NCBI GenBank assembly: GCA_918797485.1
Contig: CAKKNE010000003.1
Location: 4,774,001-4,838,000 of the forward strand
DNA from: Pelagomonas calceolata
Lineage: Eukaryota
Reading direction: 5' to 3'
DNA length: 64,000 nucleotides
Below, one piece after another: positions 7,860 through 54,809 of the stretch. The notes below the pieces were generated by a model. It saw only the letters and a program-made list of their open reading frames with translations, had not been told where the DNA came from and ran no database searches. A program made the translations under genes and the position numbers. Position 1 is the stretch's first letter. Every line of letters begins with the position of its first letter.

Positions 7860-8218
7860 GCCCTCTTCCCTCCCCCAAACTCCCGTTAGCTATCCTGACC
7901 GTGACTGAGCAAGGAGCTAAGCTCTTACTAGTAGGGCTAAGGCCGGCGGGAGCCTGAGGTTTTTCAACTTTAAAACCTTTTTGAAAACTTGAACCAGACG
8001 GATTCAAGTTCGGTCCAGAATACTAGTGCCAGTGAATATCAGACCGTAATTCCCGCTCTGCCACCGAGCGCCTTCGAGCGGTGAACTCCACGTAGGAGGT
8101 GCTCTACGACGAGTCGTCGCGGCGCGCCTACGACGCCGCGTCCGAGTCCGGGCTCGACTAGATAATAAGTCGACTCGGATAGTGACTCCAGACGAGTCAA
8201 ATATATCTATATGTCTAC

Positions 8219-11200
8219 TTACTTTTCCACGAGAAGCGCCTCGAGCCGCGCGACGCGCCGTTCGAGGCCGTCGTGCTTCGCCGCGAGCGCCGCGAGCGCC
8301 GCCGCGAGGACGGGCGCGGCGCGGCCGTACGCGACGTGCTTGAAGCCGTCGGCGTCGTCGTAGACGAGCGACGGGAACGCCTCCTCGACGCGCTGGGCCA
8401 CGAAGCCGACGTCGCGGCGCGCGGGGAAGTTCCGCGCCGGGAACTCGTCCCTTTTGTAGGAGAACGCGTACGCGCCGAGGCTCCCGTTGCGGAGCGCGCC
8501 GAGGCACGCGGCGCCATCCAATACCGCCAGGTCGCGCTTGAAGCGCGCGTCGGACGAGTCGATGTACGCGCCGGAGCCCATGACCGTCCCCCCGACCACG
8601 ACCGACCCTCCGACGAAGGCGTCGCTCTTCACGTCCAGCGCGCCGCCCACGTTGACGTTCCGGGGCGCGTGCACGGCCGCGTCCGCGTCCACGTAAAGGC
8701 CGTCCTCGGCCTCGAGCGCGCCGCCGTCGCCCGCGACGACGAGCGCGCGCCGACTCGCGTCGAGGGACCCGACCAGCACGACGTCGGCGGCGACGAACTC
8801 CAGGCCCGCGGCGCCGCCGCCCTCGAACTGCCCGTCGCGGATGACGTGGCCGCGCGCGTCGACGTCGCCCGCGAGCGCGCCGACGGCGAGCCGCGGGATG
8901 GCGACGGCGTGGTCGGCGCCGGCCGCGCACCAGGCCTCCGCGGCAACCAGGGCCCCGTCTTCCCCGAAGACGGCCGCGGCGCCGCGCGCGGGCGCGTCGA
9001 CGTACGTCAGCTCCTCGACGGCGAGCTTCTCGAGCCCCTCGACCGAGCCGCCCTCGATCCTCGCGTTCTTCAGGCGCGCGTTGTTCGCGAAGTCGAGGTC
9101 CCCCACGATGGTCGCGGCGCCGAGACGTTCGACGTGCAGCGTGCGGTCGCGGTAGTACAGCTCGGGCGTCGCGCCGAGCGCGCCGCCCGGCCCGACCAGG
9201 ACCGGGCGCTCGAAGCCCTCCGGGGGATTGCTCTTGGTCCCGGGGGCGTGGTCCAGCCGCAGCACCTGCGCGGCGACCTGGGCCAGGCCCGTCGCGGAGC
9301 CGCCCTCGATGCGCGCGTCCTTGATCGCGTGGCCGCCCATGTGCAGGGGCGCGTCGACCGAGGTCGTGACCATGAGCCGCCTGCGTGCAAATGAGCCAGT
9401 GAGCCGCATGCTGACTCGCGGGCGGACGCACGGCAGTCGACATGTCGCGACGAGGGCGCGCAGCGAACGTCGAGGCGTACGCCCATGCGAAGGCGCCGCC
9501 GCGAAAGTTGACGCCCGCACCGGGAGCCGCCCGACGCGCAGCCGCAGCGACGGCGACTCTTTGGGACCGCCCTTGACCCGGTCGACGGAGATAAAGTCCG
9601 CGTCGGCGTCGAGGAACCCCTTGGGGCCGTAGAAGACGACGCCGCTTTGTTGGGAGTCGCCGGTCCGGCTCGACAGCCGGCCCGCGCGGACGGCGTGCGG
9701 CCCGACGTCCAAGTCGGCCGCCGCGTCGAGCCGCGAAACGCCGACGAACTCCGTCACCGACGACCGCGTCACCGCCGCGCCGGCCGCTGCGACCGCGCCG
9801 GCCGCGTCGCCGCCGATCGCCGCCCAGCGGCGATCGCCGCCCTGGTAGAAGACGCGCGTGCTCCCCGCGGGGACGACGTGGCCGTCGAGCGTCGCCGCGT
9901 CGCCGTCCGAGTTCCGCACGACGAGCTGCCGCGCGTCCGGCCCGCCGTCGCCCTCGACCGACATCGCGTTGCCGCTGCCCCGCCGCCCGTCCTCCAGGAT
10001 CTCGACGTACGACGCGCCGGCCGGGACGGCCACGCGCGCCCCGGCCTTCGCCTCCGTCCGCTGGAGCCTCACCGCGCCGCCGACCGCCAGGTCGCCGCCG
10101 AAGACCGCGCCGCCGGCCGACCGGACGCCGCCCCGGGCGACGAGCGCGCCGGACGCGTCGACGCTGAAGACCGACTGGCCCTTGACGACGCCATCGACGA
10201 GGCGCGCCGCGCCGCGCGCGAACGGCGTCGGCGGAGCCAGCGCCGGCGCCTCGAGCGTCAGCACGCTGCCGCCGAACTGCGCGTGCGTCGCCGAGGCCCG
10301 GAGGGGCGCGCCGCCGGCGGCCCTCGAGGCCGCCTCGACGCCGCCGTCCTCGAGCGCGAGCCCGCCCCTGAGCGTCAAGGCGCCGCTCCGGACCTCGAGG
10401 CCGCCGTCGACGCGGAGCCCGCCGGCGCCCACGTCCACGCCGCCGCCGTGGACGCGGAGCCCGCCCGCCGTGACGCGCACGCCGCCCGCGAGCACGTCGA
10501 GGGCGCCGTCGCCGCGGACCGCGAAGACCTCGTTCGTCCCGCGGAACGCCGCGACGATGGGGCCGTCGCCGTCGCGCCGCTCGAGCCGGAGCGCCGGCGC
10601 GGCGCCGGCGCCGCGCGCCGTCGCGCCGGCCGTCGCGACGAGCGCGTCGGCCGTCGCGACGCCGCCCTCGAGCGTCACGCCGGCCGCGGCGACCGCGCCG
10701 GCGACCGTGAGCGAGCCGAACGACCCCGGCCCCTCGCTCGCGAGGCCGGCCCGGCCGACCGCGACCGGCTGGTCTTTGGCGACGCGCAGCGCGGGCGCGT
10801 CCGCCGGGCCCGCGACCAGGAGGTCGCCCTTTGCGCTCGCGAACGCGGCGCCGCCCGAGAACGTCGCCGGGCCGCGCGCGTCGAGCGCGCCGGCGACGGC
10901 CACGCCGCCGTCGAACGCCGCGGCCCCGGCCGCGCGGATGTGCCCGTCGCCGCGCACGGCGAGCACGTCGCCGCCCCGCCCGCCGGCGCCCACGCGCAGG
11001 TAGTGGAAGTCCGGCGACGCCGCGCGCTTCGCCTCCAGGCCCAAAATCGTGCCCGAGTAGAACGGGCCTTCACTCCGATACAATTGAAGCGTGTCCGCGT
11101 CCTTGTTGTCGTCGCAGGCGTCCCGCCGCCAGCCCGCGCGGCACCGGCACTTTCCCGTCGCCAGGTCGCAGTCGCCGTGGTTCGAGCACGGCGCGTGCTC

Positions 11201-11764
11201 CCGGACGTTGGACGCGACCGCGTCCTTCAAGGTGCACTGTGGCACGTCCCAGGCGTCGCCCGGGAGCGTGGACTCGCACTCGAACGTCCCGAGGGCGGGG
11301 TTGCCGCCGTGCGGCGCGTGCGCGTCGACCGGCGCCGGCGCCCACTCGTCGAAGGTGACGAGCCACCCGTCGGTCGTCTGGGAGCAGGACGCCTTCTGGA
11401 CCGTCGGGAGCGAGCTGATCGCGCGGCCGCACGTCGCGGCGTCGAGCACCGCCGGCAGCAGCACGCTCTCGCCGAGGAACCCGAAGCGCAGCCGGCCGTC
11501 GACCTCGCCGCCCGTCGGCGCCGTGACGGTCAGCGCGATCGCGCGCGACACCTGGTTCTGCGTCAGCGGGTCGTCGCCGCGCGGGCAGTGGATCTGCTCG
11601 CAGGCGGCGCCCGTCACGCCCGGCTGGCAGATGCAGAACGAGGTGGAGAGGGTGGCGTCGGGCGCCGAGCAGTAGCCCCGGAAGTTGCAGTGGGCCGGGC
11701 AGGCCGCGCGCACGGCCGCGCCGAGGCCGACGGCGACGAAGGCGAAGGCGCGGCGCCGCCCCAT
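8219..11764 (-). CDS. Secreted EGF-like/mastigoneme-like protein with Gly-rich beta repeats and a C-terminal peptidase S74 (intramolecular chaperone) domain; intron 9381-9530
   Basis: Signal peptide MGRRRAFAFVAVGLGAAVRA; EGF motifs (CPAHCNFRGYC, CPRGDDPL, CSNHGDCDLATGKCRC); SDARFKRDL...GFVAQRVEEAFPSLV...VAY followed by a terminal coiled coil. Confidence 0.8.
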   Translation of the reverse strand: MGRRRAFAFVAVGLGAAVRAACPAHCNFRGYCSAPDATLSTSFCICQPGVTGAACEQIHCPRGDDPLTQNQVSRAIALTVTAPTGGEVDGRLRFGFLGESVLLPAVLDAATCGRAISSLPTVQKASCSQTTDGWLVTFDEWAPAPVDAHAPHGGNPALGTFECESTLPGDAWDVPQCTLKDAVASNVREHAPCSNHGDCDLATGKCRCRAGWRRDACDDNKDADTLQLYRSEGPFYSGTILGLEAKRAASPDFHYLRVGAGGRGGDVLAVRGDGHIRAAGAAAFDGGVAVAGALDARGPATFSGGAAFASAKGDLLVAGPADAPALRVAKDQPVAVGRAGLASEGPGSFGSLTVAGAVAAAGVTLEGGVATADALVATAGATARGAGAAPALRLERRDGDGPIVAAFRGTNEVFAVRGDGALDVLAGGVRVTAGGLRVHGGGVDVGAGGLRVDGGLEVRSGALTLRGGLALEDGGVEAASRAAGGAPLRASATHAQFGGSVLTLEAPALAPPTPFARGAARLVDGVVKGQSVFSVDASGALVARGGVRSAGGAVFGGDLAVGGAVRLQRTEAKAGARVAVPAGASYVEILEDGRRGSGNAMSVEGDGGPDARQLVVRNSDGDAATLDGHVVPAGSTRVFYQGGDRRWAAIGGDAAGAVAAAGAAVTRSSVTEFVGVSRLDAAADLDVGPHAVRAGRLSSRTGDSQQSGVVFYGPKGFLDADADFISVDRVKGGPKESPSLRLRVGRLPVRASTFAAAPSHGRTPRRSLRALVATCRLPCVRPRVSMRLTGSFARRRLMVTTSVDAPLHMGGHAIKDARIEGGSATGLAQVAAQVLRLDHAPGTKSNPPEGFERPVLVGPGGALGATPELYYRDRTLHVERLGAATIVGDLDFANNARLKNARIEGGSVEGLEKLAVEELTYVDAPARGAAAVFGEDGALVAAEAWCAAGADHAVAIPRLAVGALAGDVDARGHVIRDGQFEGGGAAGLEFVAADVVLVGSLDASRRALVVAGDGGALEAEDGLYVDADAAVHAPRNVNVGGALDVKSDAFVGGSVVVGGTVMGSGAYIDSSDARFKRDLAVLDGAACLGALRNGSLGAYAFSYKRDEFPARNFPARRDVGFVAQRVEEAFPSLVYDDADGFKHVAYGRAAPVLAAALAALAAKHDGLERRVARLEALLVEK
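9381..9530 (-). mobile_element. Introner element, 150-nt in-frame GC-AG intron
   Basis: Minus strand reads TSD gcggctcc, then cggtgcgggcgtcaac...ctcactggctcatttgcacgcag, then TSD gcggctca (7/8). Length is a multiple of 3, so it is hidden inside the ORF. Confidence 0.85.
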
Positions 11765-12125
11765 CCGGCCTCTCCTTCTTGGCCGCAGTGGCGGGGGTGG
11801 GCGTGGCAGCCCCCTTTTTTGACGATTTGGGAGCTGGTGTCTCGGTCGCACCAGGGGGAAGCCCTCCTGTTTTGGTCTAGCTCATCAGGCTGGCTTTGGT
11901 GAGACAACCAAACTTGTATGGTACCTCTATGACATTGGTACAGTAAGCACTCGGATGTTCGTCCGCTAGATGAGTGGAGGTACAGTAGCTGTCCGTATAG
12001 GGAGGTATGAGAACCTGACCGTATAGGTCATAGATTAGGGGTCTGGACCGTAAGATACGTATCTCATCTCGCTCCGTATCTCCTCTCCGTGCCTGGTGCC
12101 GGACTGGCCCGCATTTGATATCGGC

Positions 12126-13095
12126 ATGGAACGCCCCTCGACACAGAGCCGGGCGCGGACGCCCCCGAATCCGGAGAACCTCGACGCTTTTAGCGGCAGG
12201 CGACCAGTGTTCAGCTTGTCTCCAAACCGACCTCACTCACCCGGTCGATACGCGCGCAGGCGGGTGCGGACCTCCGTCCTTCAGCAGCTTCTCCCACATC
12301 GGCGAGGAGGTCCAAAGCTTGACCTTTGCCGTGGGGCTCCGCGAAGATGCGGCGAATGCCGAGTACTACGTGAAGAAGATCTTACCGATGTCGTTCTACG
12401 AGCCCGGGAAGCCCGTCGAGAAGCGGGCTCGGGCACCCCCGAAGGACGCGCCGCCCGTCGAGGCGCTGGACGTGCCCGAGCTCGTGGAGATGCGGCAGCG
12501 CCTCCGAGACGTCCTGCGGGGCTGCGAGAAGATGGAGCGCGAGGAAAAGCAGTGCGCCGCCGAGCTGCAGGCCGCGACGGACCGGCTCGCCACGGTCGAG
12601 AAGCGATCCGCGCAGCTCGACGACCAGCTCGACCAGTACGACGAGCAGCTAGCCGAGGAGCGGAACCGGACCCTGGCGGCGTCGATGGACGCGGAGCAGA
12701 CGCGGGCCCAGCACGCGGAGCTGCTCGAGCAAGTTGAGCGCGGCGAGAGGGCGGTCGCGCGGCTCGAGGCCGAGCTCGCCGACAAGGAGGCGCAGCTCCG
12801 GGCCCTCGAGGCGTGCTCGGACCTCGAGCTCGTCTTCGGGCGGCGCGACGACGAGCCGGACGGCGCGGAGCTCGTCCTGCGCGACGAGGTCTCCGGGCTC
12901 GACGCCTGGCGGCAGCCGCCGGCGAAGCTCGCGAAGCGGCACCTCCAGATGGCGGCGAACGCGTCGCGCCCTCCCGCGGCGGCCGGCGGCGCGACGTACG
13001 CGGCCCGGATGACCTCATTCAAGCGCAGGCTCCGCGCCGGCCGGCGGCCCCGCGGCGCCGAGGCGGCCGGCTCCGTCGCGTCCGGGGCCGCGTAA
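12126..13095 (+). CDS. Coiled-coil protein of unknown function; tentative first exon 12126-12147 and GC-AG intron 12148-12259 (alternative start ATG 12388)
   Basis: Strong GC3 bias and a heptad-rich E/L/A/Q sequence. Acceptor-like ctcac...gcgcgcag ends at 12259. The putative donor gccgggcgcggac resembles the exon start gcgggtgcggac. Confidence 0.55.
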
Positions 13096-13892
13096 GCGCG
13101 CCGGTACTCCTAGTGCGAGTTATAGACGATAGTATGAATGAAGGTGCGTTGTACCGCTATCCCGTTGCTATTTCGACGCTCCGGTTGGTCGTCCTGGTTG
13201 GGAGTTGTATAAATAAATAAATGCGCCACCGACGCGGATCTAGTACTCCGGTGTCCAGCCTTAACTCTAGTCTACAATAGCGATTACCGCAGTACCTCCT
13301 CGATTCGTGGTGGAACCGGCGACCGAGGAGCAGGCGTTGGCGCGCATCCATCGTCGTCTAGAGACCGTGCACGTGCGTGCGATGCAGTCACGGTGGCCAG
13401 CTCGGCGTTGCTCTTGGCCGGGTGCCATAGGAGCCAGTGACAAATTGCACATCCCGATAGAAGGGCATATCGGAGTCCCTTCTCGAGCCTGAGAAGAAAA
13501 ACGAGGTCGGAGGTGCGACCGTGACCACCTTACTCTGTCCTTACGGCGGAAGGGGCAAAATAAAACAACCCGAAGCCTTAGCCAGGCCATATGCCCCGCT
13601 CGCGGGGGATAGCTCCCCCAACAACCCCAAAACCCGAATTAACTAGTTATGCTTCAACAGTGGCAGGGTTGAGCTTGGCTTTCGCCGCTAGCCCCTTGCT
13701 GAGCCACTGCCACGGGCCCTGCGGCATCACCAATACTGCTCCGCAGCGAGGCTTGCAAAAAGCTCGCGGTGCGTTCAAGCACAACATCGCAGTTGCCTGC
13801 AGCGTCACCAAGACTGCTGCCCTCGCCTGGAGAGCGACATACTTAGCGAAGCCGGCCCTGCGAGTCGTTTGAACACTGCCAAGGTAAAGAAA

Positions 13893-14810
13893 ATGCGCTA
13901 CATCCTCCCCCTCGCCAGCGCAGCTGCGGCGTGGCAGCCGGCGTGCGCGCCGCTCCATCGTCGCGCCACGCGCCGCTCCGCCTCGGCACCGCTGCCCGTC
14001 GACGACCCGCCGACGCTCGAGGAGCAGCTGGAGCTCGCCGAGGGCGAGAACGCGTATTTGCGGAGGCGCCTCGCCCAGCTCGAGAGCCGGCTGCGCGAGC
14101 AACCGCACCCGCCGCTCTGGGCGCTCGAGGACTGGGCGAGCATCGACGGCGTGGAGGGCTGCCGCGAGCTGGGGCGGGACCGGCTGGGGACGGCGCTCCA
14201 GCTCTACAACGCCGCACACCCGAAGAAAACGCCGCTACGCACCGACGGGTCGATGGAGCAACTCGCGCGGGAGGTCGTCGCCGTGCTGCCGGCGCTCAAG
14301 CAGGCCGTGGTGACGAAGCGCAAGCACGCCCAGTCCAAGCGCGTGCTCCAGGCGGCAACCAAGAGCGGCCACATCAGGCCGGGGCACGTCGTCGAGGGCG
14401 TCGTCGCGGCCGTCCGGGCCGTCGGCGTGCTGGTGGACATCCCCACGCCTTTCGGCACGTACCGCGCCCAGCTGAAGCCGGACCAGGTCACGGGCGTCAC
14501 GCGGACGCCGCTCCAGTCGTTCGTGGCCGAAGCGTTCCCGGTCGGGTCGCACGTCCTGGCGGAGGTTCTGGACGTGGACGCGGCGTCGGAGGTCACGGCG
14601 TGCCACCTCTCGACGAGGAACCTGGAGGAGGCCCTCGGCGAGATGTCGACCGACCGCGACGCCTTGTTCGCGCGGGCGCGCGCGAGGCGCGCGGCGCAGC
14701 CGCCGCCGCGGTCGCGCGCGGAGCGGCGCGAGGTCGCGAAGGCCGCCGAGCACGGGCTCGCCGAGCCGTACATCGAGGCGCTCGAACACCACCACGTCAG
14801 GGCGGGGTGA
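13893..14810 (+). CDS. S1 RNA-binding domain protein, probably plastid-targeted
   Basis: N-terminal MRYILPLASAAAAW-QP bipartite-like leader. S1 pattern PGHVVEGVVAAVRAVGVLVDI...VGSHVLAEVLDVD...LSTRNLE. Confidence 0.65.
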   Translation: MRYILPLASAAAAWQPACAPLHRRATRRSASAPLPVDDPPTLEEQLELAEGENAYLRRRLAQLESRLREQPHPPLWALEDWASIDGVEGCRELGRDRLGTALQLYNAAHPKKTPLRTDGSMEQLAREVVAVLPALKQAVVTKRKHAQSKRVLQAATKSGHIRPGHVVEGVVAAVRAVGVLVDIPTPFGTYRAQLKPDQVTGVTRTPLQSFVAEAFPVGSHVLAEVLDVDAASEVTACHLSTRNLEEALGEMSTDRDALFARARARRAAQPPPRSRAERREVAKAAEHGLAEPYIEALEHHHVRAG

Positions 14811-15082
14811 TGATGGTGCCGCCCCTAAATTTATTTCATGGGTAGTAATGGTAGTAGGCCCAGAATGCCGGCAGGGTGGAATTGACGAACCGGCTGGCTG
14901 AGAGTCATCGTCGCTTTTGCCCCCGGCGCAACAACGCAGTGACACACTTAGTGACACGTGGGGGGGAGAGAGAGGCCTCGCAAACCCTAATTGAAAATTA
15001 CTTGATAACCAGCTAGCGGCCTTAAGACACTAGCAAGCTTAGCTCGACGAGCCGGCCACAGGTAGGGTACAAGTTGTACAGC

Positions 15083-16615
15083 ATGAAGTTCGGCGCGGAC
15101 CTCAAAAACAGCGTCGTGCCGGAGTGGGCGCCGGGCTACATCGCCTACGACGCGCTCAAGGCGCAGATCAAGGCCATCAGCGGCGCCGAGGCGGACGAGC
15201 GGGACGCGCTCGAGGAGACCTTCTTCGCGACGCTGGAGGAGGAGCTGGAGAAGGTGAACCGGTTCTACCTGCAGAAGATCGGCGAGTTCGACGCGGCGCT
15301 CGCCGCGCTCGAGGCGCGCAAGCCGCGGAGCGCGTCGGGCGACGCGCTCGGCACGCCCGCGACGTCGGACCACCGGCGCAACGCCATCAACTTGCACGCC
15401 CAGATCGGGCAGCTGCAGGCGTTCGTCTGGCTGAACACGCAGGGCTTCGAGAAGATCGTGAAGAAGTACGACAAGTTCTCCGGCCTGCGCCACACGCCGC
15501 AGGCCAAGGCCCCGGACTTCGAGGCGCGGCTCCGGGGCGAGGTCTTCAAGTCCGAGCGGCTGGACGCGTGCCTGGAACGGTTCAAGATGGCGCGCGTCGT
15601 GGACAGCGAGACGCCGCACCATCTCGAGATGAAGCTCGTGTCGGGGTCCGCGAACAAGCCCCTCGCCGAGGAGATCGCGGCGCGGCTGGGCGTGCCCCTC
15701 TCGCCGGCGAAGGTGCGCCGCTTCAACGACGGCGAGGTCAACATCCAGCTCTGCGACAGCGTGCGCGGCGCGAACGTCTACATCCTGCAGCCGACGTGCC
15801 CCCCGGTGAACGACCACCTGGTCGAGCTGCTCCTCCTGGTGTCGGCGGCGCGGCGCGCGTCGGCGGCCACCGTGACCGCGGTGGTGCCGTACTACGGGTA
15901 CGCGCGCCAGGACCGCAAGGACCGGAGCCGCGTGCCCATCTCGGCGGCCGACGTCGCGCGGATGATGGAGGCCATGGGCGTCGACCGCGTCGTGTGCGTG
16001 GACCTGCACTGCGCCCAGATCCAGGGCTTCTTCGGGCCCCGGACGCCCGTGGACAACCTGTTCGCCGCGCCGATCGCCGTGACCTATTTCAACATGAAGG
16101 ACCTGGTCAAGCCCGTCGTGGTCAGCCCGGACGCGGGCGGCGTCGCGCGCGCCAAGGCGTTCATGGAGGGCTTCGGCCGCCTGCCGGACCCGCCGCAGGT
16201 CTCGCTCGCCGTCATCCTGAAGCAGCGGGCGGAGGCGGGCGTCGTCGGCACGATGCACCTCGTCGGCTCGGTGGAGGGCTGCGACTGCGTCATCGTCGAC
16301 GACATGATCGACACGGCGGGCACGCTGACCGCGGCCGCGAACGAGCTGCGCGCGTTCGGCGCGCGGCGCGTCTTCGCGTTCGCGACGCACGGCCTCTTCA
16401 GCGGGCCCGCGGCGGACCGCATCGAGCAGTGCGTGCTCGAGGAGTGCGTGGTGGCGAACACGGTGCCGCTAGCCGCGGCCGTGCGCGAGAAGACGCGCAA
16501 GATCCGCCAGGTCAGCGTCGGCAAGCTCGTCGAGGGCGCCATCCGCGGCATCCAGTGCGGCACGTCCGTGAGCGCCCTCTTCACCCAGGACATGGCGGCG
16601 GACCTCCTATCCTAG
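15083..16615 (+). CDS. SPX domain - ribose-phosphate pyrophosphokinase (PRPP synthetase) fusion
   Basis: SPX part: MKFG...PEW..GYIAYDALK, ELEKVNRFY, LNTQGFEKIVKKYDK. PRPS part: RFNDGE, VPYYGYARQDRK, DLHCAQIQGFF, VSPDAGG, VDDMIDTAGT, ATHGLFS. Confidence 0.92.
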   Translation: MKFGADLKNSVVPEWAPGYIAYDALKAQIKAISGAEADERDALEETFFATLEEELEKVNRFYLQKIGEFDAALAALEARKPRSASGDALGTPATSDHRRNAINLHAQIGQLQAFVWLNTQGFEKIVKKYDKFSGLRHTPQAKAPDFEARLRGEVFKSERLDACLERFKMARVVDSETPHHLEMKLVSGSANKPLAEEIAARLGVPLSPAKVRRFNDGEVNIQLCDSVRGANVYILQPTCPPVNDHLVELLLLVSAARRASAATVTAVVPYYGYARQDRKDRSRVPISAADVARMMEAMGVDRVVCVDLHCAQIQGFFGPRTPVDNLFAAPIAVTYFNMKDLVKPVVVSPDAGGVARAKAFMEGFGRLPDPPQVSLAVILKQRAEAGVVGTMHLVGSVEGCDCVIVDDMIDTAGTLTAAANELRAFGARRVFAFATHGLFSGPAADRIEQCVLEECVVANTVPLAAAVREKTRKIRQVSVGKLVEGAIRGIQCGTSVSALFTQDMAADLLS

Positions 16616-16863
16616 CCGCGGCCGGCGCCGCCGCCGCGTGAGGGCACGATTTCGCGACTAACTTGAATTGAGACTTCGTTTCCCGAGGACTCGGAGGGAA
16701 GCGCGACCGCCACGGGTGGCTCCGAGGACGGCGAGCGAGCCTCGTTGTTCCTGCTAGTGCAGCGAATCCTAGAAGGGTGGCCCGGGAACGCAAGACCTTC
16801 AAGTTTTGGTGAGTGTTTGGTGAGTATTTCGGCCCGAATCTAGGTGTCTGACATACCTTGAAT

Positions 16864-17053
16864 TGCGATAAATAGGGCGAATACCCCCCCTACTATACCC
16901 TTCCTTAAGTCTACACTTAGACACACCACACACGCAACGCGCAATCAAACACCGCAAACCAAAACTAGTTAGTGTATTTTAAGGTAGCTCCTCGGCAGAC
17001 TATCTCAGCCGCCGTAGTACTCCCAAACTTGAAGGTGCGTACTCCTCTGGTCT
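16864..17053 (+). mobile_element. Degenerate solo LTR, same family as 59607-59823
   Basis: Aligns by eye, in inverted orientation, with 59626-59823 (ataaatagggcgaataccccccc...aaggtagctcc...ggtgcgtactcctctggtct). Begins with TG. Confidence 0.7.
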
Positions 17054-17383
17054 GAAGTGTTTGGACGAAATTCTAAGTGTTTGGACTGGCCCGGCCCGGG
17101 CCCCGGGGGCTCTAGTGTGGATTCTACTACTAGTAGTAGGTCCAAGCCGACTACTTTTATTTCAGAATATTTCTCAGTTGAGAAACGAAAAGGACATGGC
17201 AGATCGCAATAAAGCTTTCAAGTTTGGTAAGAGCAGTATCGAAGCCCGTAAAAGATGGGGTCGTTGATGATGCCGGCAGCCTGTACAGGTAAGATACTAG
17301 CAAAGAGGTCACCTAGGCTAGACGCATAGACAAGCTCACGTAGGCTTCAACGAGTAAAAACGCTACGCGGAGCAGTGCCAAAG

Positions 17384-18793
17384 ATGATGCACAGCCGCCG
17401 TGGCGCGCGGACCTTTGCCGGCCTGGCCGTCTGCGCGGTCGGGGCGGCCGTCCTCCTCCTCGGGAACACGGCGCGACGGCGGCTCGGGGACGCCTCGGTG
17501 GACGAGGTGACGGGGCACAAGCGCCTCGCCCCGACGGACGCGACGGACGTCGCCGGCTTTGTCTGCGCCGCGCTGGGTCTCGTCATCGCGGCGGGCGGCG
17601 GGATCGGCGGCGGGGGCATGCTGGTGCCGATCTACGTGCTGGTGATGGGCTTCAAGCCGAAGTTTGCGATCCCGCTCTCGAACATGACGGTGCTGGGCGG
17701 CGCCATCGCGAACGTGGCCATGAACGCGCGGAAGCGCCACCCGCTGGCCGACCGCGCGCTCGTGGACTGGGACCTGCTGGTGCTGATGGAGCCGCTGACG
17801 CTCGCCGGCGCGCTGGCCGGCGGCTTCGCGAACAAAATCGCGCCGGAGCTGGTCATTACGGTGCTCTTGGTGGTCCTGCTCTACCTGACCTCCGAGCGGA
17901 CCGTCAAGAAGGGCCTGAAGCTCTACGCGAAGGAGTCCGCGGCGTTCTCGGCCATGGCGGACGCGCGCGTCGCGCTGGACGACGCGGAGCGGCAGGAGGA
18001 GACCAAGGGGCTGCTCGACGACGACGGCGGCGAGCCGAAGGGCGTCGACGACGAGAAACGGGCGGCGCTGGGCCGGATCCTCGCGGAGGAGCGACGCGCG
18101 TTCCCGCCCGACAAGGTCGCCGTCCTGGCGGGCATGTTCGTCCTGACGGTCGCGATGAACCTGGCGAAGGGCGGCGGCGCCTTCCCGTCGCCGTTCGGGA
18201 TCGAGTGCGGCACGGCGTCCTACTGGGCCCTGACGGCGGCGATGTTCGGCGCGCTCGTCGCGATCTCGCTCGCCGTCCGGGCCTATTTAGTGAAGCGGAC
18301 GGAGACCAAGGACGCGTGCGGCTATGCGTACGTCGAGGGCGACTTTCACTGGGACTCGTCTACGACCCTCAAGTACCCCTGCGTCTGCTTCTTCGCCGGC
18401 GTCTGCGCGGGGCTCTTCGGGATCGGCGGCGGGATCGTCAACGGCCCCCTCATGCTCGAGCTCGGCGTCCTGCCGCCCGTCGCGGGGGCCACGACGGCGT
18501 GCATGATCCTGCTCACGTCGACGACGGCGGCGACGACGTTCCTGACGTTCGGGCTCGTGCAGCTCGACTACGCCAAGAGGCTGTTCTGGGTCGGCGTCGG
18601 CGCGACGGCCGTCGGCCAGTTACTCATGACCCGCCTGGTGAAAAAGACGGGTCGCCAGTCCTACGTCGCATTTTCCATTGGCGCGGTCGTGTCTTTGTCG
18701 ACGGTGCTCATGGGCTTCCACGGCCTCGTGTCCCTCGCGTCGGACGCTTCCGAGGAGGAGCGCGCCGGCGCCATCTGCGGCAAAGGCGACTAG
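17384..18793 (+). CDS. Sulfite exporter TauE/SafE family membrane protein
   Basis: GGGIGGGGMLVP, AIPLS, RHP...LVDWDL..LMEP, GLFGIGGGIVNGPLMLELG; multiple TM helices. Confidence 0.9.
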   Translation: MMHSRRGARTFAGLAVCAVGAAVLLLGNTARRRLGDASVDEVTGHKRLAPTDATDVAGFVCAALGLVIAAGGGIGGGGMLVPIYVLVMGFKPKFAIPLSNMTVLGGAIANVAMNARKRHPLADRALVDWDLLVLMEPLTLAGALAGGFANKIAPELVITVLLVVLLYLTSERTVKKGLKLYAKESAAFSAMADARVALDDAERQEETKGLLDDDGGEPKGVDDEKRAALGRILAEERRAFPPDKVAVLAGMFVLTVAMNLAKGGGAFPSPFGIECGTASYWALTAAMFGALVAISLAVRAYLVKRTETKDACGYAYVEGDFHWDSSTTLKYPCVCFFAGVCAGLFGIGGGIVNGPLMLELGVLPPVAGATTACMILLTSTTAATTFLTFGLVQLDYAKRLFWVGVGATAVGQLLMTRLVKKTGRQSYVAFSIGAVVSLSTVLMGFHGLVSLASDASEEERAGAICGKGD

Positions 18794-19203
18794 CAAAGAG
18801 TAGTAGTAGTATGTAGTCTTTGTTTGCGGGTAGCCTGAGTGGCGTCGTGCCGGCCTTTTTTTTTGGCCAGGTCGTCAATTCCGCCGTGCCATGTGCGAGT
18901 GCTCTGGCGGTCACCAGTGAGGTGAAAACAGTGACTACCCTAGATATATATCTTCAATATTCAAGCCTCTGTTTTCTCCCAAAAAGGACGTTAGGTATAA
19001 CTCAACTCGCTTTAGCCTACTGCGGTACCGTAGGTACCGTAGGTACCTACGGTAGTAAACTTTAGGTATTCATACCGGTACGATTCATACCATTTCAAGT
19101 GACGAGGCGCGCTCAGCACAAAAGGACCTCCTACCTCTCCGCGGCACCGGCGACCGCAAGCGCAATCACGCGGAACTTCCTGCTTGTCTCCGCGGCGACC
19201 GCA

Positions 19204-19764
19204 ATGTCGAAGCCCACGCTCTACGTGCAGCGCCTCAGCGAGGCCGCGGTGCTGCCGAAGCGCGGGAGCGCGCTCGCCGCCGGCTGGGACCTCGCCGCGG
19301 CCAAGGCCTGCGTCGTGCCCGCCAAGGGCCGCGCGATCGTGGCGACGGACCTCAGCATCGCGACGCCGGAGGACTGCTACGCACGCATCGCGCCGCGGTC
19401 CGGCCTCGCGGTCAAGAAGTTCATCGACGTCGGCGCGGGCGTCGTCGACGCGGACTACCGCGGCGCCGTCGGCGTCGTGCTGTTCAACCACGGCGAGGAG
19501 GACTTCGCCGTCGCCGCCGGCGACCGCGTCGCGCAGCTGATTCTCGAGCGCGTCCACCTCGACGCCCAGCTCGAGGAGGTTTCGGCGCTTCCGGAGACCG
19601 CGCGCGGCGCTGGCGGCTTCGGCTCGACCGGCGTGCAAGGCGAGGCCAACGCCGCCAAGATCCGCGCGGTCTCGCCGCCGGCGCCGCCCGCGGACGTCGC
19701 CTCCCTCAAGGCGGCGCACGACGCGCTCGCGGCGCGCGTCGCCGCGCTCGAGGCCAAGCCCTGA
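19204..19764 (+). CDS. DUT: Trimeric dUTP diphosphatase with a C-terminal coiled-coil extension
   Basis: All five dUTPase motifs: [34 protein letters not shown]. Confidence 0.95.
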
Positions 19765-20299
19765 GGCCAGCGGAGACGGGAGCATTCAGAAGCACGTAGC
19801 CCGCCAGCCACCGCCCCGCAAGCACACTAATATACTATAGATGATGACACCGCCGTGACTGTTCAAGTTTAGGGCATCATGATCCTGACCTGCAGGAGAA
19901 ATAGGGATGTGGCACTTGACCGACCCCCCAGAGGGGAGATTAAGGTTTGAACTTCACTATTCGGGGGGTCAGCCGGAGAGGTTTGTTTTCAAAAGCCATT
20001 TCGCCTAGGCCTGCATATATTTATATGTATGTATGTTATATGTATAAATAAACGGGTTTTCTCCCAATGGCAGGTGCGATTCGCAGATACGCCTCCACAG
20101 CGTGGAATAAACCGCTTCCGAATTCACTGGCAGAACTCATTATAGCCGAGACCAGCCGTCACACGTACCGTCACCGGCTACTTCGTGTCGGATCGAGTCG
20201 GAGTCGGAGTCGGGGCCTTCCGGAGCCTGAGGTCTGTACCGGAGCCTTGGGGAGGGGAGTGGAGAAGAGGGGCAGCCTTGCGACTAAAATGCGCTATTA

Positions 20300-20926
20300 T
20301 TAGTCCTCCTTCTTCTTGTCAGCGTCGTCGTCCGCGAGGTTGTGCTCCTGCGGGATGAGCGCGCCGACGACGACAAGGAGGACGGCGAAGGCGGTGAGCC
20401 CCGTGGACAGCATGCGGTAGTCGACGACGAGGAAGAACTCGTCGAGCGCGTCGGTGAGCGGCGAGTACCACGTCGGGCCGCGCGGAATGTAGAGGCCGAC
20501 GTCGCGCCCGCCGTTCTCGAGCGTCTCGTTGCGCGGCCGCCGCGTGAAGTTTCGCAGGAAGTCGCTCGTGGTGTTGGTTTCGTTCGAGGTGAAGTCGTAC
20601 ATCCGCCCCCGAACGAAGAGGAGGTTTCTGGCGGCGGCGACGGCGAACCGCTTTTTGAGTTCGGGGTTCTTCTCGCACTCGACCATGGCGACGTTGATCC
20701 AGTTCGAGTCGTGCGCCGTCAGGTTCCTGTCGAGGGTCTTGAGTTTGCCGACCCACTTGTCGTCGCACCGGTCGCCGGGGCAGAAGCGCACGAACCAGTC
20801 GCCCGTCGTCGCGCCGGTCGTGCACTGCGTCTCGTGCTCGAAGTTCTCGTCGTGGAGGTCGACGACCGCCCCCAAGGTTGACGCCGCCGCGCCGGCGAGC
20901 AGCAACCCCGCGAGCGCCCGCGGCAT
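20300..20926 (-). CDS. Thioredoxin-like ER membrane protein (TMX-like) with a non-canonical active site
   Basis: Signal peptide, VVDLHDENFEHETQ..TGATTGDWFVRF, VAMVEC...LKKRF, a C-terminal TM helix and a KKED di-lysine end. Confidence 0.7.
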   Translation of the reverse strand: MPRALAGLLLAGAAASTLGAVVDLHDENFEHETQCTTGATTGDWFVRFCPGDRCDDKWVGKLKTLDRNLTAHDSNWINVAMVECEKNPELKKRFAVAAARNLLFVRGRMYDFTSNETNTTSDFLRNFTRRPRNETLENGGRDVGLYIPRGPTWYSPLTDALDEFFLVVDYRMLSTGLTAFAVLLVVVGALIPQEHNLADDDADKKKED

Positions 20927-21705
20927 GATGCGCGTCCGCGGTCCTCCCTGGCGAGCCTAGCGGCAGCGACTGCGGCACTTGATCGGTGCGCTGCGCGCAC
21001 ACTGGTTCCCTAAAATGACGACGCCCTCTGTGCGGAGCGACTGCGCGTACGCAGCCCAGGCTGTACCTGGATAGGACTGAATAGGGGGCAAAAACAAACC
21101 TGAGTTTGTGCGCGTTTGACACTAGAGCAATATGCAAGAGACGTATACTGGCGTCCCCCGTCTCCGGCCTCGCGTATTTAGCTTGGGTACTTGTGCTAAA
21201 ATTACTACGACGTGATTTTGCCAAGGAGCGCGCCGGCGGCGCCGGCAGTGCTCCGGCCTGGTTACCTGAGTGCCAGACGACCCCGTGGTACTAATCACGG
21301 AGGGGGGGTGTTGCTCATACGCGTCCTTTAGTGTTCAGAAGGGAAGAGGGACTAGTGAGAAGGGGATACTAGGGGTATACCGTGACCGTGACTATCATTA
21401 TTTCTCGCACTCCGAGTCCCGGGCCCCCACTTGCTCAAGTCTCGGATGCTTCTGAGACGAGAGTAATGAGAATTGGCTTTCCGTTTTCCGAGTCCTTGAA
21501 TAGTCCCACTGTCCACCAGCGTCCACGCGCTCGCCTCAGAGCCACCTGCCCGGCCCCGGGCCGGCTCCCCGTGAGACCTCCCCAACTTTCGGTAATTCCA
21601 CGGGTAGTTTTCCCATGAAAATTTCCCGGGAATTTGCCAATTATAGCCGAAACGACTCGGAAACTTACAGGGGTATCTGGCGACCGGCGGACAAACGGGC
21701 TGTAT

Positions 21706-22317
21706 CTACGAGGCCTCCATGTCCATGTGCGCGCGGCCGCGGCCGCGGCGACCCCCGCGTCCGCCCTTCTTGCGATCGCGGCCGCCGCGCCCCCGGCCGC
21801 GGCCGAGACCGGCGAGCGCCGTGCCGAAGAGGCCCTCGCGGACGTTGCCTGTCGGCGCCGCGCCGCCGCCGCGAGTGCCCGGCCGCGCCGTCGCCAGGCG
21901 GACCTCGAGCGCCCGACCGTCGAGCGTCTCGCCGTCGTAGCGCGTCCTCGCGGCCTGGGCCTCGCGCGGATTGGCAAAGGTTATCGTCGCGCGGCCGAGG
22001 GACCGTCCGGACGCGTCGAGCGCCATCCGACATGCTTTAATTGTTCCGCAGGCCTCGAAAAGCCGGCGGAGCTCGGACTCGAGGACGTCGTACGGCACGT
22101 TTCGCACCTCGACCGTCTTCGCGCCGTCCGCGTTTCCGAGGCGGTCGAAGATCGAGCCGCGCGCGTCGCGGGGCCGCTTGCCCGCGGTTTTCTTGCGGAC
22201 CACGGTCTTCTTTCCGCCCCTGGCCGCCGCTCGCCGCGGCTTGGCCTTGGCCGGCTTCTGCGCCGGCTTCGCCCGCCGCTTGATGATGTCCTCCAGCGAG
22301 AGGTCGAGGGCGCTCAT
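21706..22317 (-). CDS. ALYREF: ALY/REF (THO complex subunit 4)-like RRM protein
   Basis: N-terminal LDLSLEDII motif, RRM (VRNVPYDV...GRSLGRATITF) and an RGG tail. Confidence 0.75.
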   Translation of the reverse strand: MSALDLSLEDIIKRRAKPAQKPAKAKPRRAAARGGKKTVVRKKTAGKRPRDARGSIFDRLGNADGAKTVEVRNVPYDVLESELRRLFEACGTIKACRMALDASGRSLGRATITFANPREAQAARTRYDGETLDGRALEVRLATARPGTRGGGAAPTGNVREGLFGTALAGLGRGRGRGGRDRKKGGRGGRRGRGRAHMDMEAS

Positions 22318-22497
22318 CGCGATAGCTGAATGCACCGCAAAGATACAAAGCTAAGATAAATTCAGCTGCTGCTGGACGCTTACGCAACCCGCACAATTCA
22401 AGGAAAAACCCGTTTCCGAGGCTTCAAGACGCGCGGGTTTTGCTCTCGGGTGTATCGCGAGCTCGCGAGGCTCTTTGAGGCTCGAGGTGACCCTGCA

Positions 22498-23460
22498 ATG
22501 GCTGCCGCCGCTGCGCCGACGCGGCCGGAGGCCGCCGCGCCGCAGCTCCTCGACACGCAGCACGAGGACCACGTCCACGACGTGGCCTGGGACTACTACG
22601 CGCGGCGCCTGGCGACGTGCTCGTCGGACGGGACCGTGAAAATTTTCGCGGCCGACGGCGAGGCGACGGCGCACGAGGCGACGATAACGGGCCACGGGGG
22701 CCCCGTCTGGCAGGTCTGCTGGGCGCACCCCCGGTACGGCCAGGTCGTGGCGAGCTGCGGCTACGACGGCCAGGTCCTCGTCCACAAGGAGGACGCCCCG
22801 GGCCGCTGGACGGCCGTGCACGCGTGGTCGGGCGGCGAGGGGGCGTCGGTGAACGCCGTGTGCTGGGCGCCGGAGGGGGCCGGGGTGCTCCAGCTGGCTT
22901 GCGCCGCCAGCGACGGCCGGGCGACGATCCTCGCGCACGACGCGACGAGCGGCGAGTGGGCCGCGTCGTCCTTCCTGGCCTCCCCCCTCGGCCTCACGTC
23001 CTGCAGCTGGTGCCCCGTCGAAGCGACGGGGTCCGCGACGGCCGAGGGCGCGCTCGTCCCGCGCCTCGCGACCGGCGGGTGCGACGCGCTCGTCAAGGTC
23101 TGGCGCCGCGAGGACCCGAACGCGGACGCGTGGGACCTGGAGCCCGTCGCGAACGGCGGCAAGGCGCACACCGGCTGGGTGCGGGACGTGGCATTCTCGC
23201 CGTTCTACGGCGAGCCGAAGCCGTGCCTGATCTCGTGCTCGGACGACAAGTCGGTCCTCGTCTGGACGCGCAACGATCTGAACGGGCCCTGGGCGAGTCG
23301 CGTCGTGACGACCTGCGACGCCCCTGTCTGGCGCGTCGCGTGGTCCGTCGCCGGTTGCGTGCTGGCCGTGAGCTCGGGCGACGACGCCGTGAGCCTCTGG
23401 AAGGAGAGCGTCGCCGGCGACTGGCACGAGCTCGCGGAGCCCGAGGAGGCGGCCACCTAG
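22498..23460 (+). CDS. SEC13: Sec13 WD40 protein
   Basis: HEDHVHD...DYYARRLATCSSD, GHGGPVWQVCWAHP, SVNAVCWAP, HTGWVRDVA, VWRVAWS. Confidence 0.92.
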   Translation: MAAAAAPTRPEAAAPQLLDTQHEDHVHDVAWDYYARRLATCSSDGTVKIFAADGEATAHEATITGHGGPVWQVCWAHPRYGQVVASCGYDGQVLVHKEDAPGRWTAVHAWSGGEGASVNAVCWAPEGAGVLQLACAASDGRATILAHDATSGEWAASSFLASPLGLTSCSWCPVEATGSATAEGALVPRLATGGCDALVKVWRREDPNADAWDLEPVANGGKAHTGWVRDVAFSPFYGEPKPCLISCSDDKSVLVWTRNDLNGPWASRVVTTCDAPVWRVAWSVAGCVLAVSSGDDAVSLWKESVAGDWHELAEPEEAAT

Positions 23461-24034
23461 GCGAGCCCCCCGGTCGCCTCGGAAAGCGCGGGCCACGGGC
23501 GCCGCCCGCGAGGGGCTTAATGATGCGCAATCAACCATCGTGCTAAAAAGTTAGATTCGAAGCTGTGCGAAGTGAGCCTCTGCGTCCTCAGTCCTCCGGC
23601 GACTCGAGGGCCCTGAGCCCGGGGGCTACTATACGCGGTTTGGGGGCTTTCCGACGCTGCCAGTGCCCAGTACATCCTGTGACCCGTACCGTTAACGGTA
23701 CGGGTCACACAGGCCCTAGTGAGTTTTGCGCCACTAGCATTTCGACTCGACGAGTGCCGCGGTCAGGGGCGCGACGAGAGGACTAATCTACGGACAGGAA
23801 CAGTTGGCAGTCGCGCAAGTCGACCTGCGGCTTGTCTCTGCTATGGCTCGACCCCCCTACTACGCCCCCTACTAGAGGGGGCTACCCCACTACCACTACC
23901 CCCAAAACCACCTCCTGGGGAGCTTCTACAAACCTCGTCATGCTGCGGGTTGGGCCTTCCTCGCCGCCTCCGCGTACCAACGTACCAAATTTGTGCGATG
24001 CTCGGATGAAAACCGTGCTGCCGAGCCGCAACTC

Positions 24035-25273
24035 ATGCGGTGGATCCCGTTTCTCGTCGGCTGCGTCGCTGGTGACCTGCTGCAGCGGGCCCAGCAGCTC
24101 GCGAGTCTCGCCGTCGAGGAGTTTCGAACGGAGGCGCGCCCCCTCGTGCGCTGCCTCCGCTGGGCGGAGCTGCCAGCGGCGCTGGGCCGCGAGCTCGTCG
24201 ACGGTACGTCGCGCAGCGACTGGGAGACCTGCATCCCAGTCTTCCGGCCCCACGCAACGCATCCGGCGTGCGGCGCCTGGGACCGGGCCGCGCCCTTCTG
24301 CTTCGACGGCGCCGGCGCATGCCCGGTGTCACAGCCGGCTCGGGGCGGCCTCTTCGCGGGCGCCTGGCCTACGAAGGCGGCGGGCCCCGGCAGCTTCTAC
24401 GCGAAAGGGAAATGGTACAATAGCAGCGATACGCTCCCAGGCTACGCCGCGCCCTGTTACGCGGGCGCCGGCTGCTTCCCTTCGGCCATCGGCATTGGCC
24501 TTGCTAAGTCGGGGACCTCGACCCTCTTTGCGCTCTTCCCTGAGCATCAGAGGGGCAAGGAGCCAAGGTTCTGGGAACCCGCGCGCGGAATGCCCTGTCG
24601 CTTCCCGAACATGGACTGCTACCTGCGGTCAGTCCCGGCTTCACACTCGTCTCCTTTGACCATCGATGCGACCGTGCCTCTGACGTGGCATATACACGCG
24701 CCTCTCTTCCTGTCCTTTGCACAGCCGCGCACCAAATTAATAGCCACGGTCCGCGACCCCCTCGACCTCCTGGAGTCGCACTACTATTTCTCGTATCACC
24801 CCGGATCAGATAAATATATGAACGTCTCGATCTTCGGCCGCGCACTACTCAGCGACGTCGAGCTCTTCCTCGACTGCCACGCGGCGTCGGCCTGGGCCCT
24901 AGAACATCATCTGGCCTGGGACCCGGGCTGCGTGTGGACGTACGACCTCGACGCCAGTGGGCTCTTGCACTCCCCGCTGCGGGATATCCTCTACGCCGAT
25001 GGGCTCCACCTGTGGCTGGCGCGCTTCCCGCCCAACCAGATCCTGTGGCTCGACACCCGCGACATCCTCGAGTCCGCGGGCCTCATCGCGACGTTCCTCG
25101 GCGTCGACGCGGGGCGGCTCGTCGCGGTCGAGTTGCCCAAGAACAAAAACACAGGGAACACCCGCGGGCTCTTTGCAAGCCTGGGCCCCAATGTCACGCG
25201 CCTTCTTCGCCTCGTCACCGAGCCGACCGAATACCTTCTGGAGGCCATGAGGCGAAGGAAGCCGGTGCCGTAG
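24035..25273 (+). CDS. Secreted/Golgi sulfotransferase (heparan-sulfate-sulfotransferase-like fold)
   Basis: 5'-PSB loop IGLAKSGTSTL, KEPRFW, 3'-PB KLIATVRDP...SHY; short hydrophobic N-terminus. Confidence 0.75.
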   Translation: MRWIPFLVGCVAGDLLQRAQQLASLAVEEFRTEARPLVRCLRWAELPAALGRELVDGTSRSDWETCIPVFRPHATHPACGAWDRAAPFCFDGAGACPVSQPARGGLFAGAWPTKAAGPGSFYAKGKWYNSSDTLPGYAAPCYAGAGCFPSAIGIGLAKSGTSTLFALFPEHQRGKEPRFWEPARGMPCRFPNMDCYLRSVPASHSSPLTIDATVPLTWHIHAPLFLSFAQPRTKLIATVRDPLDLLESHYYFSYHPGSDKYMNVSIFGRALLSDVELFLDCHAASAWALEHHLAWDPGCVWTYDLDASGLLHSPLRDILYADGLHLWLARFPPNQILWLDTRDILESAGLIATFLGVDAGRLVAVELPKNKNTGNTRGLFASLGPNVTRLLRLVTEPTEYLLEAMRRRKPVP

Positions 25274-26235
25274 CGAACTGCGCTCGGTGTCACCACACCC
25301 CCTTCTTCTTGGCTCTGTCCTCAGCTGCAGGAAATATCCACGTGCGGGTTTGATTCAGTGTAGAAATCAAATTATTTTATGAATAGGCCTGGGATATTTC
25401 TGCTTCGTCAGATTGAAGTTCAACGTAAAGTTCAACTAGAGGGAGGGGGGGTAAATTTAGCAAAACCCGTCACCTAGGTGTTCTATATGGGGGGGGAAGC
25501 CAGACCCGGATTGCTCCATAGCGAATATAACCGGAGCCCAGTGGTCCAAGTTGCCAAGTGAAACTGGAGCAAAAAAACAATTTCGGGTCAAAAAAACACA
25601 TGCAGCTGCAGGTGCAGCTGCGGGTCCCTGCAAGTCCCATAATTACGAAAGGCATCAGGGGTTTGGTGTCTAGGCAAGTGCCCAGGATGCCCGCGTGCCG
25701 AGTTACGAGCGGATTAAACAATCCCGTTGGCCAAAGTCCAGGTCAATCAAATGATCTCCTAGTTTATTTAGACTACAAAAACCGCCGCTGGTACTGTAGG
25801 TTACATGCTAGGCCCATGGGGCTCGCTCCTAAGCGGCCTTCTTCGGCCCGAACGGCGTCCAGAGCCGCCACTAAGTCATCACCTTTGCTGCAGCACCCTT
25901 GAAGACCGTTGTAGCCACCTCGCTGAACGCATGCAGCTGCAGCCGACGCGTCGCTAAATCTACTAAACGGGTTTTTGATGACTTTGGAGCTCTCCCTCTC
26001 ATCGTCATCGACCTCCGTACGGACCCCCGACCTCGGGCGGGGCTACCGACCCCTCTCGGAGGCTTCATGCGAAAAAGCCGGTAATTTCGGATCGATTAAG
26101 ACTCGTTCAGTAGTACCTGGCGTCCCCCCCTTTTCCACATCCGAGTCCGAGTCGGGGCCGCGATCCACTGGCAGTGGCAGAGATTTTCTAGCGAGTTAAA
26201 AACCGGGGCGGAAGACAGGAAGCGTCCATCCGCGC

Positions 26236-27750
26236 CTAGCCGGCCGCGCAGAGGTCGCCGGCGACGTTCTGGACGATACCGTCGGGGACCCAGCCGGTGC
26301 CGTCGGGCGCGACGATCTGGACGGAGACGCCGTTGGGCGTGACGACGTAGAGGTTTGCCTCGTCGTCGCCGTTTCCGTTGGTCGCGGCGATGGCCTCGGC
26401 CGCAAAGTGCACGGTCGCGCCGCGCTTCGTCGCGCGGTCGAGGAGCTCGGCCATGGCGAGGCGCGTGCCCGAGATAGCGTAGTGGAAATCCAACCACTGG
26501 TTCTCGCCGTCGTAGGCGCTGCGCAGCGTCGCCGCGTGGGCCTCGTTGAGCGTCGTCTCGAAGTCGCGGACGGAGAAGGGTCCGCCCTCCGCGTGGCTCT
26601 CCACGAGCAGCACCTGGACCGTGTCGTCGACGCCGTGCGGGCCGAAGCCAAAGGCCGCCATGCGCGATTTAGGGCCCCTGTACGAGGCGATCTCCTCTGC
26701 AACCAGCACGTCTTGGTAAAACGACGACGCGGCGGCCAGGTCGGACACAAAGTGCGACACCGCCGCCGCGTAGAGCACACCGCCCGACGAGGCACCAAAG
26801 TGGGCAGCGGGCGCCGTGGTTCCGTCGCGAAAGGCGTAGCGCGGATATGCCGCGGCCGCGACGCCGGCGGCGCCCGCTCTGAGTGCCGCCTCGTCGAACG
26901 CGTCCGAGAAGACCTCGACGACCGCGCCGGCCGTGGTGCCCTGCGCGAAGGCGACCGAAGCGAAACTTCGACCGAACGCGTCGGTCCAGAGCCACAGGAA
27001 GTAGGGCTGTTCGTTCTTGAAGTAGGTGCTCATGTATTCCCTCAGGTCGCTCGAGTACAGCTTCACGTTCATGTCCATGAGCGGGTCCCACTTCTGAAAA
27101 CCGCCATAGGCCTTGCGGAAGGCGGCCTCGACCTCGGCGACACTCTTGCCATCGCCCGCGCTCCTATCCCTCGCGTCGACGTGGTGCAGGCCGAAGCCCT
27201 CGGCGAAAGAGCCGACGCCGGCCAGGTCGTCTGCCGTCAGCAGTTGGACCCTGCCAACGGCCCCGCACTCGCACTCGCACGGCGCCAGCTCGTACGTCTC
27301 CGGAAAACTGTGCGCAGCGAGCGCGTACGCGACGCAGTCGACGGGCGCCCCGCCGAGTTTTTTCAGGACGTCCCCGGGCACCGCGACGGAGCATCCGGCG
27401 TCGCCGCCCCAGGGCGCCAGCGCGACGGGCAGAGACCCGAACGCCTTGATGGCGGCGTCGACGTCGCTCGTCGCGTACGTGTGCTTGACGACGCCGTCGG
27501 GCGGCGCGCGTTCCGTCTTGCCGCGCGGGCCGGGCCTCGCAAAGAGCGACGCGTCGTTTTTGGTGGGGCGCGTCTGCCGCGCGATCGCGACCGTGCCCGC
27601 GACGGCGAGGCAGGCCGCGGCCGCGGCCGCCGCGCGCGTCGTTCGTCGCCGCAGCTTCGCGGGCAGCGGCAAAAGCTCCTCGTCGGTGGGGGTCGCCGCC
27701 CCGACGCTGCCGTAATCTGGCGCGTTCGTTCCGCGCGGCGGGCCGACCAT
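26236..27750 (-). CDS. Type II membrane protein with possible glyoxalase/VOC-like repeats
   Basis: YGSV cytosolic motif, then a hydrophobic anchor. SHFVSDLAAASSFYQDVL and NLYVVTPNGVSVQI resemble VOC elements. Strong codon bias. Confidence 0.5.
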   Translation of the reverse strand: MVGPPRGTNAPDYGSVGAATPTDEELLPLPAKLRRRTTRAAAAAAACLAVAGTVAIARQTRPTKNDASLFARPGPRGKTERAPPDGVVKHTYATSDVDAAIKAFGSLPVALAPWGGDAGCSVAVPGDVLKKLGGAPVDCVAYALAAHSFPETYELAPCECECGAVGRVQLLTADDLAGVGSFAEGFGLHHVDARDRSAGDGKSVAEVEAAFRKAYGGFQKWDPLMDMNVKLYSSDLREYMSTYFKNEQPYFLWLWTDAFGRSFASVAFAQGTTAGAVVEVFSDAFDEAALRAGAAGVAAAAYPRYAFRDGTTAPAAHFGASSGGVLYAAAVSHFVSDLAAASSFYQDVLVAEEIASYRGPKSRMAAFGFGPHGVDDTVQVLLVESHAEGGPFSVRDFETTLNEAHAATLRSAYDGENQWLDFHYAISGTRLAMAELLDRATKRGATVHFAAEAIAATNGNGDDEANLYVVTPNGVSVQIVAPDGTGWVPDGIVQNVAGDLCAAG

Positions 27751-54776: not shown

Positions 54777-54809
54777 GCCTTCTGCCAGTGCGCTTCGACT
54801 TTCTTGTGT

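Follow-up and report, generated by a model that had tools for sequence, protein, structure and literature searches.

Non-coding DNA throughout the window, the whole 64,000-nucleotide stretch of Pelagomonas calceolata DNA analyzed here, carries short insertions that obey a single rule, by which a dinucleotide XY becomes XY-C-revcomp(XY)-G-XY with a net gain of 6 nt. Such gains, and the rule that they follow, are observed in the window, in related loci and between alleles. These scars very probably derive from a transposon, whether or not a hairpin intermediate was involved in making them. Transposon footprints have usually been known a few at a time, from laboratory revertants and in variable form, whereas here one exact rule applies, and the scars still separate nearly identical alleles.

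Reciprocal insertions in a long terminal repeat

According to the earlier note, two copies of a long terminal repeat (LTR) in the window differ by reciprocal insertions of the same word (Table 1). AACTTGAA is indeed present at both sites, and BLAST aligns 16864-17053 with 59823-59626 at 78.6% identity (E 2e-35), with the 6-nt gaps arranged reciprocally as described. The identification of the repeat as an LTR is borne out by a solo relative in locus L013, which has TG...CA ends inside a 5-bp TCCTG duplication. Polarity was read from 11 LTR sequences representing 6 independent loci, namely the two window copies and copies from metagenomes; when metagenomes were scanned for an 18-nt motif of the LTR, 17 loci matched, nine of them real LTR copies and eight of them chance matches that served as controls. 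The site-1 word is found in one of the 11 sequences (window copy 1), and the site-2 word in two, window copy 2 and its allele L011, which together constitute a single locus. As to whether both words could belong to the family consensus, as deletion would imply, each is confined to one of the six LTR loci, and both are therefore gains.

What stands of the original proposal is thus a pair of independent net +6 gains at AA/TT sites, with their polarity set by the six loci. The notion of a fixed word inserted in a chosen orientation does not stand, because the middle four letters depend on the target dinucleotide. Likewise, the opposite orientations that had been put forward as a separate property merely reflect an AA as opposed to a TT target, which is to say one scar viewed on either strand.

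Table 1. Positions of scars, host repeats and the candidate donor element in the window
Feature	Position	Strand	Remark
LTR copy 1, starts TGCGAT, ~20 terminal nt missing	16864..17053	+	bystander
+6 scar, AA target (AA-C-TT-G-AA), LTR copy 1	17026..17033	+	absent in other 10 LTR sequences
LTR copy 2, TG...CA, then putative primer-binding site	59607..59823	-	bystander
+6 scar, AA/TT target, LTR copy 2	59699..59706	+	also in allele L011; absent in 5 other loci
Third filled site, same word in (ATTT)n-tailed repeat	39647..39654	-	plain AA in copy 59445-59480
CT-target scar (CT-C-AG-G-CT), second LTR family	30170..30177	+	empty in L004/L012
Field of 96 XY-C-revcomp(XY)-G-XY matches, non-coding DNA	250..61804	.	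~9 by chance
Example hotspot, nine overlapping/adjacent matches (TT, CC/GG, GA, CT targets)	55131..55200	.	rule matches
Candidate donor, 536-bp non-coding element, 25-bp inverted repeats (2 mismatches), start CGACCCCC, C...G ends, TT/TT flanks	31921..32456	.	inverted-repeat search

One rule for many words

AACTTGAA is one case of the rule, the one that an AA target always produces, just as a TT target always yields TTCAAGTT. It occurs 21 times in the window, always outside the gene calls, where 0.64 occurrences are expected from dinucleotide shuffling of the non-coding DNA, none of 200 such shuffles having more than 4. Across the 23,947 bases of non-coding DNA in the window, the general rule has 96 matches, a density of about 4 rule sites per kilobase; 8.8 are expected, and the highest count in any of 200 dinucleotide shuffles is 16. 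A similar excess is present in the related loci, with 124 matches in 36,258 non-redundant bases and 9.4 expected (maximum 16 of 50 shuffles). In 11 unrelated loci, rule counts fall inside the shuffle range, and the 1.7-kb locus L016 displays no enrichment; three bacterial chance matches from a scan of genome contigs were used as negative controls. All ten dinucleotide classes occur, six of them strongly enriched over the window and the related loci, with TA a minor class. The top enriched non-coding 8-mers, AACTTGAA (21), AGCCTGAG, GACTCGGA and CCCGGGCC (15 each), CACTGGCA (14) and ACCGTGAC (8), all fit the rule.

The spacer bases can be examined in the same manner. Among the 16 possible spacer pairs, the 12 that include A or T never exceed their shuffle maxima. 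The classes C..C, G..G and G..C are, along with C..G, above chance (29, 47 and 31, respectively, versus about 9), an excess that comes partly from GC-only repeats and nested scars; among 46 words of these three classes that contain A or T, 17 share bases with a canonical scar, and the other 29 are free of such overlap. When one-base spacers are combined with units of 1, 3 or 4 nt, the C..G class is at chance, its count for 3-nt units being 4 against 0.6 expected, equal to the shuffle maximum. Other spacer lengths give moderate excesses under a cruder null, and the 3-nt-unit geometries that were checked (4 of 10) consist mostly of TACCGTAGG arrays and common palindromes. The bases adjoining 76 scars on both sides are near random (A32, C40, G48, T32) and the empty sites lack the C and G of the scar, so these two bases are not host bases.

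Scars among alleles and around genes

In 12 pairwise alignments of alleles and repeat copies, 95 distinct indels remained after de-duplication by context, although some non-canonical events may have been counted twice. Among their sizes, 6 nt is second in frequency only to 1 nt. Exact collapse by the rule is seen for 15 of the 20 distinct 6-nt indels and for 2 of the 4 12-nt indels, most of which are not polarized individually; by comparison, a random 6-nt deletion would collapse by the rule at 193 of 8,883 positions (2.2%), and at 85 of 900 (9.4%) in the densest hotspot. Loci L006 and L002 differ over 5,321 bases by 9 substitutions and 5 indels, three of which are scars (four events). Several scars are private to one of four alleles. 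Between the window and L011, over 2,432 mostly coding bases with 67 substitutions, there are no canonical indels.

Open reading frames (ORFs) are poor in scars, with 6 in 13,235 bases versus 89 in 23,023 bases outside them, and around genes the scars are concentrated on the 3′ side, where there are 58 in 12,403 bases as compared with 14 in 10,225 bases on the 5′ side. Scars are clustered in their pairwise spacing, which shows a weak rise at about 140 bases but nothing that is clearly a nucleosome period. In use, motif finders would take the scars for regulatory elements.

Two further kinds of variation are found in the same DNA. There are 15 occurrences in the window of the word TA-CCGTAGG-TA (19024-19047, 32783-32816, 35410-35431 and elsewhere), which is also found at approximately 4470-4540 of L012; it forms 9-bp tandem arrays, with marked differences from one allele to another, and may represent the scar of a TA-targeting element that re-entered its own scar. 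In addition, a 10-nt indel relative to L011 at about 57770 contains a short internal inverted repeat with a 5-nt duplication and is possibly the scar of another element.

Repeats that host the scars

The LTR in which the two reciprocal words were noticed is a bystander, because scars are found, too, within a second family of LTRs and the candidate donor element, as well as in unique intergenic DNA. Its copies in L004 and L012 sit behind a purine tract. The CA end of copy 2 is followed by a 12-nt motif, which may be a copia primer-binding site, and the same motif follows CA at 35646 and 48866. The second LTR family is represented in the window at 29823-30330, 29200-29330 and 49465-49660 and in L012 at 6080-6303, behind a purine tract, and is preceded by a protein fragment, presumably the C-terminus of a gypsy integrase, that is 81-89% identical to three unnamed proteins. 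The apparent long inverted repeat at 29200-30330 is better described as two inverted copies of the second LTR behind this integrase-like fragment, and it is therefore rejected as the donor.

A 1.64-kb stretch at approximately 57846-59487 contains two ORFs without a Pfam family, ends in an (ATTT)n tail, lies within a T run and is missing from allele L011. It looks like a recent insertion of a non-LTR retroelement-like sequence. Further copies of its 3′ end are present at 61287-61454, 39633-39670 and about 13147-13230, and its ORFs belong to unnamed protein clusters with a weak lead to zf-RVT (40% of members).

Genomic setting

Genes in the window include those for kinesin, Sec13, Psb31, a sigma-70 factor and dUTPase, and the DNA is nuclear, from a GC-rich and intron-poor alga. 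Sec13 is 57% identical to a cluster with Aureococcus anophagefferens and 54% identical to Chrysophaeum taylorii, which points to a pelagophyte host; its own protein cluster has 128 members. Given that the genes are algal nuclear genes and that the word is one of a family, a reading of the word as a viral early promoter was rejected. Scans of viral contigs with the inverted-repeat end, the LTR and the element interior returned nothing.

GC content drops from about 70% to 53-62% at 48000-62000 of the window, which resembles the edge of a P. calceolata low-GC region. Such regions are described for the chromosomes of this species, with Dcc1 among their contents (10.1101/2021.10.25.465678). Locus L007 encodes Dcc1 and some related loci have lower-GC genes; these loci may come from a low-GC region or from a sister species. 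Elsewhere in the window, an SPX domain is fused to ribose-phosphate pyrophosphokinase (15083-16615), a domain arrangement that suggests phosphate-sensing control of PRPP synthesis. There is also a protein at 8219-11764 that has EGF-like repeats and, at its C-terminus, a Peptidase_S74 (endosialidase chaperone) domain, and a perfect 32-bp palindrome in intergenic DNA at 23678-23709.

A candidate donor element

Among non-tandem inverted-repeat pairs in the window, the best is formed by the terminal repeats of the 536-bp element in Table 1; were this element excised according to the rule, TTCAAGTT would remain. In L007 there is a second, partial copy with one end only, which begins with the same C after CA and carries two scars. 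The evidence for this donor comprises one complete copy, and a 2-bp flank match arises by chance about once in 16 cases. Judged from these sequence features, the element might be a non-autonomous member of the donor family and so be linked to the scars, a proposition for and against which the balance is roughly even. Another element of 447 bp, at approximately 11500-11960 of L007, has a 20-nt imperfect inverted repeat and a CA duplication, with G...C rather than C...G ends. A Pfam scan of 80 ORFs (about 100 kb) turned up no transposase, and no allele in the 12 pairwise alignments holds an element at a scar site.

Proposed mechanism and alternatives

The scars display a net insertion at an empty site with a duplicated target, as well as an inverted copy of the flank at the joint. 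A duplicated target, an inverted middle copy and two constant bases together are the product expected from hairpins on the flanks. The scars are probably what a cut-and-paste transposon, one that duplicates 2 bp of target and has C...G ends, leaves behind on excision by way of flank hairpins. In the steps that we infer, the element would enter nearly any dinucleotide and duplicate it. When the element leaves, the transposase would place its nicks one base in from the two 5′ ends of the element and would seal each flank as a hairpin with the terminal C of the element at its tip. Both hairpins would then be opened by a host nuclease at a point two bases beyond the tip, leaving overhangs that end in complementary dinucleotides, and annealing, fill-in and ligation of these would produce the identical +6 scar at each site. 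In an enumeration over the number of element bases at the tip (0-2), the opening offset (0-3) and the length of pairing (0-3), the scar was obtained only with one element base, in two registers: opening 2 nt past the tip with 2-nt pairing, and opening 1 nt past the tip with no pairing. Within this model the first register would be preferred, because pairing explains the uniformity of the scar.

The same product could arise from a transposon that makes no hairpin, if a staggered cut left 1-nt C overhangs and a host polymerase wrote the inverted dinucleotide by fold-back or cross-junction synthesis. Sequence alone cannot reveal the intermediate, and the enumeration covered hairpin registers only. 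This route is nonetheless unlikely, since the terminal C would have no fixed priming partner among neighboring bases that are near random, and since inverted pieces of differing length would be expected from such synthesis; in the enriched class, however, the piece measures 2 nt, and the C..G class with 3-nt units is at chance.

Quite unlikely, too, is a host process that involves no transposon, in which break repair, a topoisomerase- or Spo11-like cut (Spo11 cuts with a 2-nt stagger) or template switching would generate a micro inverted triplication. The disproportion between about 200 scars and a single complete candidate element would be in keeping with such a process, as would the clustering of scars in hotspots near gene 3′ ends. 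However, template switching copies local sequence, and the constant C and G are missing from both the empty sites and the flanks, while a 2-nt staggered cut accounts for the duplication only.

The reading implied by the earlier note, that of several Tc1/mariner-like families with their own target dinucleotides or of a reverse transcriptase that writes fixed words, is very unlikely. Each word does resemble a 2-bp duplication around four fixed letters, but one formula fits all ten dinucleotide classes, the middle being the reverse complement of the target, and the alternative word AACAAGAA occurs once as against 21 times; the single rule thus largely refutes this reading. Scarcely credible is the view of the words as ancestral or regulatory motifs that differ through slippage deletions between 2-nt repeats, which would suit their restriction to non-coding DNA but is refuted at both LTR sites by the presence of each word at one locus in six, and is at odds with words private to one of four alleles and with their being fewer at gene 5′ than 3′ ends.

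If the scars are excision footprints formed through flank hairpins, the constant C at the center of the palindrome predicts a specific cleavage position for the donor transposase. The genome would moreover become a countable map of past transposition, from which the rate relative to substitutions, the choice of target, the hotspots and the scarcity in ORFs and at gene 5′ ends could be read. Conceivably, the donor belongs to a new transposon lineage whose ends are CGACC and whose 2-bp duplications are almost untargeted, and which, in a register different from that of hAT, nicks one base inside its own end before it hairpins the flank and, through near-deterministic host repair, leaves frame-neutral +6 scars at close to the point-mutation rate; we offer this fuller picture tentatively, as somewhat doubtful. 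Were it true, the passage of transposons would rank among the main sources of mutation in the non-coding sequence of a marine alga that is widespread.

Comparison with known systems

A literature search of limited coverage found no published description of a scar with this 2-bp rule. Tc1/mariner footprints consist of a 2-bp TA duplication with a few element bases between, at TA targets only, whereas the scars in the window occur at all ten dinucleotide classes and include an inverted copy of the target. In hAT elements the target duplication is 8 bp, in contrast to the 2 bp duplicated in the scars. The two are alike in the palindromic bases at the joint, which are accounted for by hairpins on the flanks and by their opening and subsequent joining, often via microhomology. 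In hAT (Hermes) and RAG systems, the non-transferred strand is nicked and the hairpin forms on the flank (PMC6900584), and Ac/Ds footprints have palindromic bases at the joint, often with microhomology (PMC5873905). The center of the Ac/Ds palindrome is the complement of the host base beside the element, and 128 revertants yielded 28 different footprints (PMC5873905); in the window, on the other hand, the center is a constant C and not derived from a host base, and one product dominates.

Within the pelagophytes, the introner elements of Aureococcus are non-autonomous DNA transposons that make an 8-bp duplication and are retained as introns (PMC9860276). The likeness lies in non-autonomous pelagophyte DNA transposons with target duplications, and the difference in that the scars of the window avoid ORFs and the element is gone.

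The CMCT clade, comprising EnSpm/CACTA, Mirage, Chapaev, Transib, Plavaka, ESTA, as well as Lanisha, makes 2-5 bp duplications, and the ends of its members usually start with C, mostly as CA..TG (PMC12730594). Its catalytic motifs are common to RAG1, a maker of flank hairpins (PMC12730594). The DDE transposases of the clade bear C(2)C and H(3-4)H motifs. For CACTA footprints, lengths of 4 and 0 bp are given (PMC4015899), and their sequences are presented as a figure in PMC3193017. The 2-bp duplication indicated by the geometry of the scar, and by the TT/TT flanks of the single complete candidate, is shared with this clade. The candidate differs in starting with CGACC rather than CA; of the end sequence, the scar itself determines the initial C and no more.
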